Assembly: GCA_963727625.1 (NCBI GenBank)
Contig: CAVSHR010000008.1
Location: 320,001 to 384,000, forward strand
Reading direction: 5' to 3'
Source of the DNA: an uncultured delta proteobacterium
GTDB taxonomy: Bacteria > Desulfobacterota > Binatia > UBA9968
DNA: 64,000 bases
In this document: one piece after another, positions 1-19,639 of the stretch
Layout of the letters: every line of letters begins with the position of its first letter
How positions within the stretch are numbered: the stretch's first letter is position 1
Translations under genes and position numbers: made by a program
The notes under the pieces: model-generated
The model's input: the letters and a program-made list of their open reading frames with translations, nothing else
Database searches by the model: none
Told to the model about the DNA's origin: nothing

Positions 1-732
1 CAGCCAATCACAGCCGAGATCGCGAATCTCGCCGCGCGACGTGAACTTTGGCAATTCCGCCAGTGCTCTCGTCAATATCGTTTGCTTGCGTTTGGCATCG
101 TGAGGCGGTCCGAAAGTCCGACCGACCGGATGGTCGACAAAGGCCGCGCGCGGCGGCGTGACCTTGCTCATGATGTCGCGCGCGGTGCCAATTACCAGTG
201 TCGGAACTTTATGCGCCTCGATTACGTGGGCGATGAGACCGACGGTCTCGTGACAGAAGGGTCAATAGGGGACGAGTAATGCGAGATCGACGCCGGCTTC
301 GATTAAATCGTTAGCGATGGCCGGGGCCAGCTCGGTTTCGATTTCTTTGGGTCGTTTAACGCCGCCCATGAACGAAAAATGCCAGGGAGACAGCGAGCCG
401 ACGATGCCTTCCTCTGCCAATGCGGCCAGTGCCGTGCGCGGAAAAACAATCTCCGGGTCCTGCCTCGGCACTATGCCGATGCCGGAATGATGGTCGATGA
501 CGAGCACGCCGGCGTTCGGATCCGACGGCACGCGGCGGTAACTCAGGTCTTCGCGCGGTATAAAAGGCGGATGGTCGGCGAGCCGAAGCGCGGCGCTGCT
601 CAGCAAAGCAACGCGCGACCGGCTGACGGGTTTGGTCACCGGGCACCAGGCCGCCTTCGACGGCGCCGCCAGCACGCGCGGCGGTTTCGGCGCCGAGTTC
701 TGCGCCATGATCGGCAGATATTCAACAGCCAT
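1..732 (-). CDS. PrdB/GrdB-like reductase selenoprotein B family protein, probable selenocysteine at in-frame TGA 262-264; 3' end runs off the window
   Basis: ORF from ATG 732 (MAVEYLP...RVALLSSAAL...HFSFMGG...GVDLALLVPY) hits TGA at 264-262. The same frame stays open to position 1: PFCHETVGLIAHVIEAHKVPTLVIGTARDIMSKVTPPRAAFVDHPVGRTFGPPHD... This gives a UxxC motif and the family-typical PPR/G..G.P.D tail. Confidence 0.85.
235..249 (-). promoter_or_regulatory. Candidate bacterial SECIS hairpin
   Basis: Minus-strand RNA GAGACC-GUC-GGUCUC. The stem starts 12 nt after the UGA and the apical loop starts with GU 18 nt after it. Confidence 0.65.
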
Positions 733-842
733 GGAGTATTTCCCACTCGTATTGCCACTACTACTCGACTCGCCGGCGCTAATCAACCGGAGCGGTGGTT
801 ACGAGTGAATTACGGGTTGGGTTGTGATAAGCATTTTCCCTC

Positions 843-1535
843 ATGGTCGACGTTGCCGGTAACTACCGAACGATTCTATCGCGGATCAATGAAGCGGCGG
901 ACAAAGTAGGGCGCGACGCAGGGGGAATCAAGCTTCTCGCGGCCGCCAAGTTGCAGAGCATCGAGCGGATTTGTGCGGCAGTTGCCGCCGGCGTGGCGCT
1001 GATCGGTGAGAATTACGTCCAGGAAGCCCAAGAAAAAAAATCACAGCTTGCCCAAACCGTCGAATGGCATATGATCGGCCACTTGCAGCGCAATAAAGTG
1101 AAGGCGGCGGCGGAGATCTTCGATGTGATCGAGTCGCTGGATAGCGTAGCCCTGGCACGGGCGCTGGACAAGGAAGGCGGCAAAAGCGGAAAGATCGTCC
1201 GAACCTTTGTCGAAGTGAACTTGGGCGGAGAGGAAAGCAAGAGCGGCATTCCAAAAGATCAGGTAAAAAGCGTGCTCGAAGAGATCGCAAAGCTGTCCCA
1301 CCTCTTTGTCCGAGGGCTGATGACTGTGCCGCCGTTTCGGGAAAATCCTGAAGAGGTGCGCGGTTTTTTTCGCGAGCTCGGCGAGTTGCGCGAGCAGCTT
1401 GGTGGTTTAAATTTACCAAACGTTGACTTGAAAGAGCTTTCCATGGGCATGACCCACGATTACCCGGTGGCGATCGAAGAGGGAGCGACCATCGTGCGCA
1501 TCGGCACGGCGCTCTTTGGTCCGAGGAATCAGTGA
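843..1535 (+). CDS. yggS: YggS family PLP homeostasis protein
   Basis: Motifs GENYVQE, WHMIGHLQRNK, GLMTVPP, LSMGMTHD and GATIVRIGTALFG. Confidence 0.95.
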   Translation: MVDVAGNYRTILSRINEAADKVGRDAGGIKLLAAAKLQSIERICAAVAAGVALIGENYVQEAQEKKSQLAQTVEWHMIGHLQRNKVKAAAEIFDVIESLDSVALARALDKEGGKSGKIVRTFVEVNLGGEESKSGIPKDQVKSVLEEIAKLSHLFVRGLMTVPPFRENPEEVRGFFRELGELREQLGGLNLPNVDLKELSMGMTHDYPVAIEEGATIVRIGTALFGPRNQ

Positions 1536-5090: not shown

Positions 5091-5707
5091 TCGATCTTTT
5101 AGTGGCCACAACCAACCCGGGAAAGTTTGCCGAAGTACAAGCGTTCCTGAACGATCTCCCGTTACGGATCATCTCCCTCAAGAACATCGTCAATCCGCCG
5201 CCGGTCATCGAAGACGGCAGGACTTTCGAGGAGAACGCGCTCAAAAAGGCGCGCACTTTGGCCGAATTTTCGGGGCTGATCACCTTGGCGGACGATTCCG
5301 GGCTAGAAGTCGACGCATTGAACGGTGCGCCGGGAATTTACTCAGCCCGTTACGCTGGCCAGGAGGGCGATGACCAGCGGAACAACGATAAGCTGCTGCG
5401 GGAATTAGAAAATGTTCCGGAGGAACAACGGGCGGCGCGCTTCGTCTGCGCCTTGGCGATCTACGCCCCTGCTTCCGACCCCGCCCGGTCATGGACGGCG
5501 CGGAAGTCCTGCGAGGGTCGGATCGCTTTCGCAGCCAAAGGCGCGAACGGCTTCGGCTACGATTCGCTGTTTTTCTATCCGCCGTTGGGCAAAACCTTTG
5601 GCGAGATCGATCATGCAACCAAGGCGACGGCGAGCCATCGCGGCAAGGCGCTAAAAAAATTCGCCGAGATTCTCCCGTCGCTGATTGATTTGGTCGCAAA
5701 ACCTTGA
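5087..5707 (+). CDS. rdgB: RdgB/HAM1 non-canonical purine NTP pyrophosphatase
   Basis: Motifs [33 protein letters not shown] and SHRGKA; overlaps the rph stop. Confidence 0.95.
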
Positions 5708-5731
5708 TTTCACGCGCTTGCTGTGTAGAAT
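5704..5731 (+). promoter_or_regulatory. Putative sigma70 promoter for the tRNA cluster
   Basis: TTGATT-16 nt-TAGAAT, ending 17 nt upstream of tRNA-Pro. Confidence 0.5.
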
Positions 5732-5748
5732 GACCGCTGGTCAATTGA

Positions 5749-5825
5749 CGGGGCGTAGCGCAGCCTGGTAGCGCACCTGCCTTGGGCGCAGGGGGTCGGA
5801 AGTTCGAATCTTCTCGCCCCGACCA
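5749..5825 (+). tRNA. tRNA-Pro(TGG)
   Basis: Cloverleaf; anticodon arm CCTGC-CT-TGG-GC-GCAGG; TTCGAAT; CCA encoded. Confidence 0.95.
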
Positions 5826-5842
5826 TTCAGCAGTATGGAGTT

Positions 5843-5906
5843 ATGAGTGCTGAGTGCTGAGCAATGCGGAACGAAAGAAGTTTGCCGCTCAGTCCTCAGC
5901 ACTTAT
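5843..5906. repeat. Heptamer-based inverted repeat (TGAGTGC)n / (CTCAGCA)n
   Basis: 5843-5862 ATGAGTGCTGAGTGCTGAGC is the 17/20 reverse complement of 5887-5906. Confidence 0.8.
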
Positions 5907-5920
5907 TGCTCTAGGTCGTG

Positions 5921-5997
5921 GCGCCAGTAGCTCAGGTGGATAGAGCAACGGCCTTCTAAGCCGTAGGTCAGGGGTTCGAATCCCTTCTGGCGCGCCA
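5921..5997 (+). tRNA. tRNA-Arg(TCT)
   Basis: Anticodon arm ACGGC-CT-TCT-AA-GCCGT; CCA encoded. Confidence 0.95.
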
Positions 5998-6018
5998 GCT
6001 TGGGGTTTCGGTTTTTGC

Positions 6019-6095
6019 GGTGAGTGTAGCTCAACGGTTAGAGCACTGGACTGTGGCTCCAGGGGTTGAGGGTTCAAATCCCTTCACTCACCCCA
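6019..6095 (+). tRNA. tRNA-His(GTG)
   Basis: G-1:C73 pair, anticodon GTG, CCA encoded. Confidence 0.95.
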
Positions 6096-6107
6096 GTTGA
6101 AAACAAA

Positions 6108-6160
6108 AAGGATGAAGGATAAGAGATGAAGTTCCTAATTATCCTTTCGTCTTTATCCTT
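6108..6160. repeat. Heptamer-based imperfect inverted repeat (AAGGATG-like / TTATCCT-like)
   Basis: AAGGATGAAGGATAAGAGATGAA versus TTATCCTTTCGTCTTTATCCTT, between tRNA-His and tRNA-Lys. Confidence 0.65.
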
Positions 6161-6171
6161 CTCATTGTGTT

Positions 6172-6247
<76 letters not shown>

Positions 6248-6401
6248 TTTTTTTCCTTCCTGGGTGGTTCTTCCCCATCTCTCCGCGCACACGCTGTCGC
6301 GACCGTCAATGTTTGTTGTTAAGCGAATCGGCTGGTGCCATAATCGCTCCGGATAAGGCAAAACTCGATCGTTAGCCGCGTTCGGCGCAAGGAGCTGACA
6401 G

Positions 6402-6926
6402 ATGGCCGCAGAGGCGGGTCTCGTGTACACGATGTTGGTGGAAGTTTATCTCGAGGCGGCCGTCGTGCGCGGCGTTCTGGAAACCAATCAAGATCGGCTG
6501 AGCAGCTATTTAGCTGTCCGGCAGGGAGAAGAAGTATTCGCATTGAAAGAAGCGATACTGCAAGTCCCGGGTCGCGAGCCGGTGTCGGCCGGTTCCCACG
6601 AATATCTACTCTACATGCAGGAAGTATTGCTCATCGCCGACTTGAGCACCGAAGACCCGGCACGCCGCGCTGCTTTGCCGGGCTTGTTTGTTAAAAAAGA
6701 GAAAAGCAAAGCCTTACTTAGCGTCGGTTCATACCTTCTGCAGGGTAACCTACATTTGCAGGCTGGCAGTCCGTTGCAAGAATTTCTGATGGAAAACAGC
6801 CGCTTTCTTCCAGTCACCGAGGCAACGTTGGCGGATCGACCGGATATCGGACCACGCACCTATCTGGTCAACCGCGCCAAGATCGGCTTTCTATCAGCTC
6901 TGGGACAAGATTTGGTCGAATTTTAA
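6402..6926 (+). CDS. Hypothetical protein with two similar halves (DUF6812-like)
   Basis: AGGAG Shine-Dalgarno upstream. C-half LQGNLH...FLPVTEATL...YLVNR and N-half VRGVL...RLSSYL...FALKEA resemble each other. Family call is from memory. Confidence 0.7.
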   Translation: MAAEAGLVYTMLVEVYLEAAVVRGVLETNQDRLSSYLAVRQGEEVFALKEAILQVPGREPVSAGSHEYLLYMQEVLLIADLSTEDPARRAALPGLFVKKEKSKALLSVGSYLLQGNLHLQAGSPLQEFLMENSRFLPVTEATLADRPDIGPRTYLVNRAKIGFLSALGQDLVEF

Positions 6927-14127: not shown

Positions 14128-14202
14128 GGGCGGTTAGCTCAGCGGGAGAGCATCGGCCTTACAAGCCGGGGGTCACAGGTTCAAATCCTGTACCGCCCAC
14201 CA
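14128..14202 (+). tRNA. tRNA-Val(TAC)
   Basis: Anticodon loop CT-TAC-AA; CCA encoded. Confidence 0.95.
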
Positions 14203-14228
14203 GGGGACGCACCAAAGAGCGCAATGTC

Positions 14229-14305
<77 letters not shown>

Positions 14306-19072: not shown

Positions 19073-19147
19073 GCTGGCGTAGCTCAACGGCAGAGCAGCT
19101 GATTTGTAATCAGCAGGTTGTAGGTTCAAGTCCTATCGCCAGCTCCA
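19073..19147 (+). tRNA. tRNA-Thr(TGT)
   Basis: Anticodon arm GCTGA-TT-TGT-AA-TCAGC; CCA encoded. Confidence 0.95.
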
Positions 19148-19229
19148 GCCAGAAGAGTTCGATTGCTAGAGACCCGGTGCGATGCAGGCTTTTTAAAGGA
19201 AATGTTTTTAAGTGGGGGTGAAGAGAGAC

Positions 19230-19314
<85 letters not shown>

Positions 19315-19323
19315 TTTTTGATT

Positions 19324-19399
19324 GCGGGAATAGCTCAGTTGGTAGAGCGCAAGCCTTCCAAGCTTGGGGTCGCGGGTTCGAGTCCCGTTTCCCGCTCCA
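19324..19399 (+). tRNA. tRNA-Gly(TCC)
   Basis: Anticodon arm CAAGC-CT-TCC-AA-GCTTG; CCA encoded. Confidence 0.95.
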
Positions 19400-19487
19400 A
19401 TTGCCTATGGCGGGTGGTAGATCACACATGGCCCAAAAAGCCCTAGGTGGAAAAATCGACCATGCGCCATAAGCCATCGACTGCTAG

Positions 19488-19560
19488 GCCCAGGTAGCTC
19501 AGTCGGTAGAGCACGTCCTTGGTAAGGACGAGGTCAGCGGTTCAATCCCGCTCCTGGGCT
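19488..19560 (+). tRNA. tRNA-Thr(GGT), CCA not encoded
   Basis: Anticodon arm GTCCT/AGGAC around GGT; acceptor GCCCAGG/CCTGGGC followed by TTTG. Confidence 0.93.
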
Positions 19561-19639
19561 TTGCCCGAACCTTGGTTCGAGAGCGCGCTAATTTTTACGG
19601 AAGAAGTTGATCGACTGGCAAATCAATCAGGAGGATGAG

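Follow-up and report, generated by a model that had tools for sequence, protein, structure and literature searches.

A 64,000-nucleotide (nt) stretch of contig CAVSHR010000008.1 (GCA_963727625.1), from an uncultured delta proteobacterium and referred to here as the window, opens with a gene interrupted by an in-frame UGA codon. Comparison with close relatives and distant homologues suggests that this gene encodes a genuine selenoprotein of the GrdB/PrdB superfamily, an orphan PrdB-like reductase. Taken whole, with its selenocysteine insertion sequence (SECIS), its chemistry and its family identity, this statement is likely to be correct. Judging from the sequence comparisons, the UGA, codon 157, is in all probability decoded as selenocysteine (Sec). 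Three parts of the account, namely Sec insertion, the redox cycle and the role as a reductase, are ones that we infer. What the sequences show is an invariant TGA in close relatives, equal conservation on its two sides, Cys at the same column in distant homologues, a downstream hairpin whose stem codons are frozen at synonymous sites, homology to PrdB and no partner genes nearby.

The gene and its reading frame

The gene lies on the minus strand and starts at ATG 732, in agreement with the conserved N-terminus of its relatives (M-x-x-x-Y-L-P-I-M-A). The in-frame TGA at 264-262 is codon 157. With TGA translated as U, the frame runs on for 87 further codons without a stop, up to base 1 of the window. 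The residues around the site are L-L-V-P-Y-U-P-F-C-H-E-T-V-G-L-I, in which Y156-U157-P-F-C160 forms a UxxC motif, and the predicted Sec-spanning peptide is LLVPY-U-PFCHETVGLIAHVIEAHK. An earlier reading of the window from its letters alone (the sequence-only reading) had described the gene in the same terms, with the start at ATG 732, the TGA as codon 157 within a UxxC motif and a frame open for 87 codons to the window edge, and the translation bears out each of these points. The features at the site are:

1..732, minus strand: gene for a predicted PrdB/GrdB-superfamily selenoprotein (codons 1-244 of ~263; the 3' end lies past the left window edge)
262..264, minus strand: UGA codon 157, predicted to be read as selenocysteine (TGA in 44/44 aligned sequences; Cys in distant homologues)
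253..255, minus strand: Cys160 codon (TGT), putative resolving cysteine of the UxxC motif (Cys in 44/44; TGC in 38, TGT in 6)

Where does the protein end? The terminal stop in 39 of 43 relatives is a second TGA, 107 codons past the Sec codon, so the full product would have ~263 residues, 244 of them encoded in the window. The exceptions are L012, L021 (a one-base deletion), L026 (an earlier TAG) and L039. This second TGA was considered as a further Sec codon, given a recurring "NFHS*" after it, and was rejected. It is a stop codon because conservation ends there, and the recurrence of "NFHS*" comes from a conserved AT-rich motif in the intergenic DNA.

Conservation across the UGA

A scan of one genome per species (tblastn, with alignment over residues 1-243/244) yielded 44 related loci, which were retrieved for comparison with up to ~20.7 kb each. 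They carry the labels of uncultured metagenome-assembled genomes (MAGs): Candidatus Binatia (14 loci), "uncultured delta proteobacterium" (14), Syntrophobacter(aceae) (6), Deltaproteobacteria (5), Verrucomicrobiia (2), Chloroflexota (1), Thermodesulfobacteriota (1) and Proteobacteria (1). All except L042, which ends early, span the Sec site; the remaining 43 loci and the window make up the 44 sequences compared.

The Sec column is TGA in all 44 of these sequences, which come from independent assemblies. Hence, a sequencing error, which the sequence-only reading had named as one way in which it could be wrong, is ruled out. Amino acid identity to the window protein is 73.6% before the UGA (34 loci, omitting nine with indels or frameshifts in this part) and 74.0% after it (43 loci), so the conservation past the UGA on which that reading depended is present. 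Nucleotide differences at codon positions 1, 2 and 3 number 1094, 736 and 2688 in the N-terminal part and 776, 579 and 1919 in the C-terminal part, with the third position dominating in both. The equal identity and the third-position bias on both sides indicate that the C-terminal part is translated in the same frame, and under the same selection, as the N-terminal part. Few parts of the protein are as well conserved as the 31 codons from the UGA to the first ATG (M189), in which changes fall chiefly at third positions.

Five relatives have a frameshift or a premature stop: L041, L043 and L044 in the N-terminal part, L021 at the 3' end, and L026, where TAG replaces a Trp codon. At least some of these faults seem to have arisen in assembly and not through decay, since a molybdopterin oxidoreductase gene in L044 (15448-17600, minus strand) is also frameshifted.

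Distant homologues and database entries

What occupies the Sec column outside the close relatives? An exhaustive HMMER search of 1.84 billion representative proteins returned 977 at E <= 0.001, and the best 150 of these 977 were examined. The column is spanned by 103 of the 150 and is filled by Cys in 82 of the 103; a C/C pair (CxxC) is present in 72. Among the remaining 21, W stands there in 3, S in 7, G in 6, T in 2, and N, D or F in the rest. Each of the three W residues is probably a TGA called under another genetic code. The sequence-only reading had proposed looking for Cys or TGA at this column in homologues, and both are found there, Cys in the distant homologues and TGA in all of the close ones. 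Where a family includes proven selenoproteins, the exchange of TGA and Cys at a redox motif is the classic signature of Sec (PMC1088965).

Of the best 150 representatives, 25 (30-72% identity) stop precisely at the Sec column, and another 8 consist of a C-terminal fragment alone. In a word-indexed protein search, 119 of the best 120 matches are cut at the Sec codon (118 with 156 amino acids and one with 161); four of the cut-off examples were retrieved, and the last residue of each is the one before the TGA. Separate C-terminal fragments have been deposited too, for example P0145, P0187 and P0200. The sole long match among the best 120, P0002 (259 amino acids), has W at the Sec site and W at the terminal TGA. 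Because W also stands at the terminal TGA, the W at the Sec site is an artefact of a caller that used TGA as a Trp codon. The expectation that standard gene callers would split the gene thus describes what most of the closest database entries look like: they are halves cut at the Sec codon, a systematic mis-annotation.

A hairpin just downstream of the UGA

The element that could direct Sec insertion lies within the coding sequence:

235..249, minus strand: SECIS-like hairpin, a perfect 6-bp stem of GAGACC (249-244) and GGUCUC (240-235) around a GUC loop (243-241)

Counted from the UGA, the distance to the stem is 12 nt and that to the loop 18 nt. The sequence-only reading had described a perfect 6-bp hairpin with a loop starting in GU, and this is real; the 18 nt that it gave as the distance to the hairpin is the distance to the loop. 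The hairpin reads as a bacterial SECIS, being a predicted stem-loop just 3' of the UGA with a G in its small apical loop. The published bacterial SECIS (bSECIS) model sets numeric limits for such elements, which serve here as general background.

By itself, the hairpin is within chance. A perfect hairpin of at least 6 bp occurs in the same range after 106 of the 1895 TGA triplets in the window (5.6%), and the 76-nt stretch folds no better than its shuffles (z = -0.46). It is conservation that raises the hairpin above chance, through the invariance of the TGA column and the synonymous freezing of the stem codons. The stem codons GAG, GGT and CTC are each present in 44/44 sequences and ACC in 43/44. 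The loop codon is GTC in 40 sequences, GTT in 2, GTA in 1 and GTG in 1, so that the third base alone varies and the G and U are kept. At other places in the same 90 nt, codon choice for these amino acids varies freely: Glu is GAA in 34 and GAG in 10, Thr is ACC in 14, ACG in 13, ACA in 10 and ACT in 7, and Gly is GGC in 26, GGA in 6, GGT in 6 and GGG in 3. Counted as majority versus minority synonyms, the stem codons stand at 175 versus 1 and the other codons for invariant amino acids in the 90 nt at 233 versus 163 (163/396), a difference with a Fisher p of ~1e-30 that is indicative only, the sequences being related. Pair probabilities in the hairpin are 0.98-0.996. It is the single helix of the RNAalifold consensus and is part of the minimum free energy (MFE) fold of 33 of the 44 sequences.

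Weighing the reading

Several results count against the proposed selenoprotein and are best considered together. First, the family scores are low. The match to TIGR04483 (PrdB) has 112.1 bits, below the equivalog cut-off of 300; TIGR01918 reaches 21.4 bits, below its cut-off of 65.45, and the matches to GrdB, GrdF and GrdH are weak as well; Pfam GRDB (PF07355) reaches 14.3 bits over residues 90-153, below the gathering cut-off of 22. Second, the hairpin is short and has a loop of 3 nt, and the 60-nt MFE fold favours other pairings in 11 of 44 sequences. An Rfam scan of window positions 1-900, with E up to 10, gave three chance-level matches and no SECIS family. Because the stem never varies, it offers no covariation or compensatory changes, and the SECIS argument turns on synonymous-site constraint. 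Third, the 12 tRNAs of the window include no tRNA-Sec, the 44 loci contain none either, and no SelA, SelB or SelD domain was found in 70 open reading frames (ORFs) of the window (all 69 greedy ORFs of at least 90 amino acids and one alternative) or in the 199 clusters of neighbouring genes from the loci. The window and the loci are small fractions of their genomes, so this missing machinery says little either way. Fourth, no solved structure resembles the predicted model of the protein, and the reading of its active site therefore draws on secondary structure only.

One further candidate bears on Sec use in these organisms. The fragmented molybdopterin oxidoreductase of L044 was considered as a Sec-containing formate dehydrogenase and rejected, the gene being frameshifted with SRLCMASA, including its Cys, in one frame. 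Because the motif carries Cys, this gene is no evidence for Sec use. We take SRLCMASA to resemble the Mo-ligand Cys motif of nitrate-reductase-type enzymes.

To which family does the protein belong? Its best NCBIfam match is to TIGR04483, with residues 26-239 aligned to positions 17-230 of the 238 in the profile (E 2.6e-32), and all 65 members of alignment A2 match the same profile (best E 3.6e-58). The Pfam GRDB cut-off is passed by 24 of 30 longer distant homologues scanned. In 22 of these 24, the match ends within positions 344-347 of the 347-position profile; the match of the window protein ends at position 344, at residue 153, just before the Sec column. Since GRDB matches stop at this point, routine annotation does not see the C-terminal 107 residues. 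In two distant homologues, P0195 (255-314) and P0209 (199-260), the stretch after the Sec/Cys column gives weak, below-cut-off matches (E 9e-4 and 1e-4, respectively) to Pfam UGSC (PF24696), a family of "UGSC-containing" marine selenoproteins. On these similarities, the UGSC and PrdB-like UxxC families may be distantly related.

Could the protein instead be a true PrdB, the subunit of a D-proline (or glycine, betaine or sarcosine) reductase, with the genes for PrdA/GrdE and the other parts at some other place in the genome? PrdB is the family that it matches best, over the full length, many relatives carry the JGI annotation "D-proline reductase (dithiol) PrdB", and UxxC is the motif that Table 2 of PMC2398784 and a table of PMC13188914 list for PrdB. 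However, 112 bits is a long way from 300, and even the best of the 65 relatives reaches E 3.6e-58 at most. The conserved setting is a housekeeping region, unlike the usual setting of Stickland-fermentation loci, and 0 of the 199 neighbour clusters, which cover 7 kb in 43 loci, match the Pfam families of PrdA/GrdE, GrdA or PrdC. In PMC13188914, prd and grd genes are described as organised in operons. We regard a true PrdB as quite improbable. With a score far under the equivalog cut-off and no pyruvoyl-subunit gene (prdA/grdE) alongside, the gene product is very likely not a canonical subunit of D-proline reductase and, on present similarities, is best treated as an orphan PrdB-like reductase.

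A different possibility is that the UGA is read without selenium, as Trp, Cys or Gly, by a near-cognate or suppressor tRNA, with the hairpin acting as a stimulator of read-through or as a protein-binding DNA palindrome. Such decoding would fit the missing Sec machinery in the window and loci scanned. The hairpin element is also a near-perfect palindrome in DNA, and P0002 shows W at the site. However, the W at the terminal TGA of P0002 exposes the first W as a product of the caller's code. TGA is an ordinary stop in the window: of 36 Pfam-supported genes there, 14 end in it. In relatives, the present gene itself is also closed by TGA; hence, TGA is not reassigned. A UxxC redox motif at which Cys and TGA alternate, in a family that includes proven selenoproteins, is the classic mark of Sec (PMC1088965). 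Insertion of a standard amino acid is, in our view, very improbable.

Finally, the UGA could be a true stop. The gene would then be split or a pseudogene, or the assembly would be wrong, and the product would have 156 residues, perhaps with a second protein made from the C-terminal part. Standard callers do give 156-residue proteins, and some callers give C-terminal fragments (8 of the best 150 representatives). This reading is hardly credible and, as these comparisons stand, already contradicted by the TGA kept in 44/44 sequences, the highly conserved 31 codons that follow with their mainly third-position changes, the existence of full-length Cys forms, and the 74% identity past the stop, which a pseudogene would not hold.

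Genomic neighbourhood

The gene is the first of its unit, facing away from yggS:

733..842: divergent intergenic region between the selenoprotein gene and yggS (from the gene coordinates), the expected promoter site
843..1535, plus strand: gene for a yggS-type pyridoxal phosphate (PLP)-binding protein (Pfam Ala_racemase_N, E 4.4e-20), divergent and outside the unit

The divergent arrangement with yggS that the sequence-only reading described is therefore as the coordinates have it. A scan of window positions 1-1000 for the sigma-70 consensus gave no match. The yggS neighbour (cluster C2) is present in 22 loci, and the same upstream gene order recurs in relatives. The window as a whole is a housekeeping region, with genes for yggS, yggT, an HD/OB protein, an aldehyde dehydrogenase, RNase PH, Ham1 and tRNAs, together with trigger factor, ClpP, ClpX, Lon, rpoB, rpoC and ribosomal operons. 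Its 12 tRNAs fall into three clusters (5749-6247, 14128-14305 and 19073-19561), and a Pro-Arg-His-Lys tRNA cluster stays beside the yggS-to-Ham1 block in many relatives.

Are there partner genes? No prdA, grd or sel gene occurs among the ORFs of the window, and a Pfam scan in which each of the 199 neighbour clusters (within 7 kb, 43 loci) was represented found no PrdA/GrdE, GrdA, PrdC, thioredoxin or Sel protein. The earlier statement that no prdA/grd partner is visible holds even for the relatives' downstream DNA, which extends past the point where the window ends.

In the relatives, the next genes on the same strand encode one or two paralogous secreted proteins of ~340 residues that are distantly related to TctC/Bug (31.9 and 21.3 bits, with a cut-off of 27). 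TctC-like genes follow the selenoprotein gene in 32 of 43 loci, directly in 27 and past inserted genes in 5. A subclade of nine loci (L011, L013, L014, L015, L021, L027, L028, L029 and L037) lacks both the yggS and the TctC-like neighbours. We considered the TctC-like neighbours as a functional link and dropped this idea: the upstream housekeeping synteny is conserved too, and the nine-locus subclade is without both. For the same reasons, the association may reflect inherited gene order rather than function.

Several other observations concern the downstream side. A conserved AT-rich motif (TTTnATAGTTAATTGCC...GAGAAAA) lies ~15 nt past the selenoprotein stop, before the TctC-like gene, for example at L003:10793-10860, and stands in the same place in L002, L004, L006, L007, L010, L016, L020, L023 and others. 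The strict form of the motif occurs in 15 of 43 loci, and other loci have variants such as ACATAATAATTCCCGCAGAC. The genes that follow could have their promoter or an operator here. In 24 loci, a conserved protein of ~145 residues (cluster C1; for example, L001:2536-3024 and L008:7183-7614, both on the minus strand) is encoded convergently to the TctC-like genes. It has an N-terminal membrane anchor, a C-terminal "...ADCGF" and no Pfam match. In one locus only, L028, the next downstream gene on the same strand (5310-6578, plus strand) encodes a CCG cysteine-rich domain (PF02754, E 3.8e-14), which we take to be of the heterodisulfide-reductase type. It is conceivable that this protein serves as the reductant for a Se-S bond.

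Predicted structure and possible chemistry

AlphaFold2, run with the 65-row alignment, gives an alpha/beta model with a mean predicted local distance difference test (pLDDT) of 96.7 and a predicted template-modelling score (pTM) of 0.94. In this model, a strand (150-154) precedes U157, and a helix (160-173) starts at C160. Sec157 and Cys160 would thus sit in a short turn between strand and helix, the usual geometry of a redox-active UxxC/CxxC centre. Searches of the PDB by sequence and by the A2 profile gave no meaningful match, and a Foldseek comparison of the model with the PDB gave 0 matches at E <= 0.001, the best being a periplasmic binding protein with a template-modelling (TM) score of 0.32.

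How might such a protein be made and work? First, UGA157 would be read as selenocysteine during translation, with the 6-bp hairpin in the coding sequence, through its G-containing loop, recruiting SelB with Sec-tRNA(Sec), to give a product of ~263 residues. Second, by analogy with PrdB, the selenolate of Sec157 may attack a substrate carbon or an oxidised partner. Third, Cys160 would resolve the adduct as a Se-S bond. Fourth, a dithiol donor would re-reduce this bond. A selenolate/thiol redox cycle was reportedly proposed for PrdB by Kabisch et al. in 1999. To our knowledge, Stickland-type D-proline reduction in clostridia is the only known biochemistry of the family.

Any claim about a specific substrate is decidedly unlikely to be right. 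One idea nevertheless has consequences that make it worth stating: the orphan PrdB-like selenoproteins may be stand-alone Se-dependent reductases without a pyruvoyl partner, whose substrate in this clade would be a carboxylate or a compound like an amino acid, which one or two TctC-like periplasmic binding proteins, encoded next to the gene on its downstream side, would capture. We consider this unlikely. If it were true, it would amount to a new catalytic use of the GrdB/PrdB fold, which has no counterpart among solved structures, and it would provide a function for a selenoprotein family that is abundant in environmental metagenomes.

Significance and prior knowledge

What does the finding add? 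PrdB-family selenoproteins with UxxC are not new. PrdB is listed with this motif among experimentally known selenoproteins in tables of PMC13188914 and PMC9312934. According to PMC1088965, "Proline reductase PrdB" ranked third in abundance among the selenoprotein families of the Sargasso Sea, with 42 sequences. PrdB was also among the most abundant families in the GOS survey, with 235 selenoproteins and 110 Cys homologues across 38 samples, as given in PMC2398784. The kind of protein is therefore already known, and the novelty claimed in the sequence-only reading was overstated, such proteins having been listed among the most abundant environmental families since 2005 (PMC1088965 and PMC2398784). 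A literature search, with subscription journals and supplements outside its coverage, found no paper on the present clade or on "PrdB-like" orphans, and none whose title or abstract deals with Binatia selenoproteins.

The present case stands out because its clade of uncultured MAGs is well sampled, the Sec codon and SECIS are invariant in it, the locus is conserved and partner genes are missing from the vicinity. The 44/44 Sec codons, the frozen SECIS, the lack of prdA nearby and a confident model without a solved relative make this clade a clean starting point for asking what partner-less enzymes of this kind do. Its value is for annotation: the closest entries in the databases, 119 of the best 120, are halves of a protein.

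Comparison with known systems

How does the protein compare with its known counterparts? PrdB itself (TIGR04483; Clostridium sticklandii type) shares homology over the full length, a similar size and Sec in a UxxC motif at the equivalent place. In contrast, the window protein scores 112 bits with a cut-off of 300, and no prdA, prdC or other prd gene is found within 7 kb in the 43 loci or in the window. The hosts differ as well: those of PrdB are amino-acid-fermenting Clostridia, whereas the present hosts are uncultured environmental MAGs of mixed labels, chiefly Candidatus Binatia and "delta proteobacterium". GrdB, GrdF and GrdH (PF07355, TIGR01917/01918) show weak but consistent similarity around residues 90-207. 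Unlike GrdB, the present protein is ~170 residues shorter, scores 14-22 bits against cut-offs of 22-800, and has no grdA, grdE, grdC or grdD nearby.

The Cys-type PrdB-like proteins, from MAGs labelled Acidimicrobiales, Dormibacteraeota and others, are ~36% identical over the full length, and their CxxCH aligns with UxxCH. They differ in having Cys for Sec and a length of ~290-305 residues, and they are annotated as "hypothetical protein" or "PrdB". The "Proline reductase PrdB" family of the metagenome surveys resembles the present proteins in being an environmental, PrdB-related UxxC selenoprotein found via Sec/Cys homology and a SECIS-like hairpin, as PMC1088965 and PMC2398784 describe it. 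Set beside those surveys by description rather than by sequence, the present clade differs in coming from different uncultured MAGs and in having its own conserved gene order.

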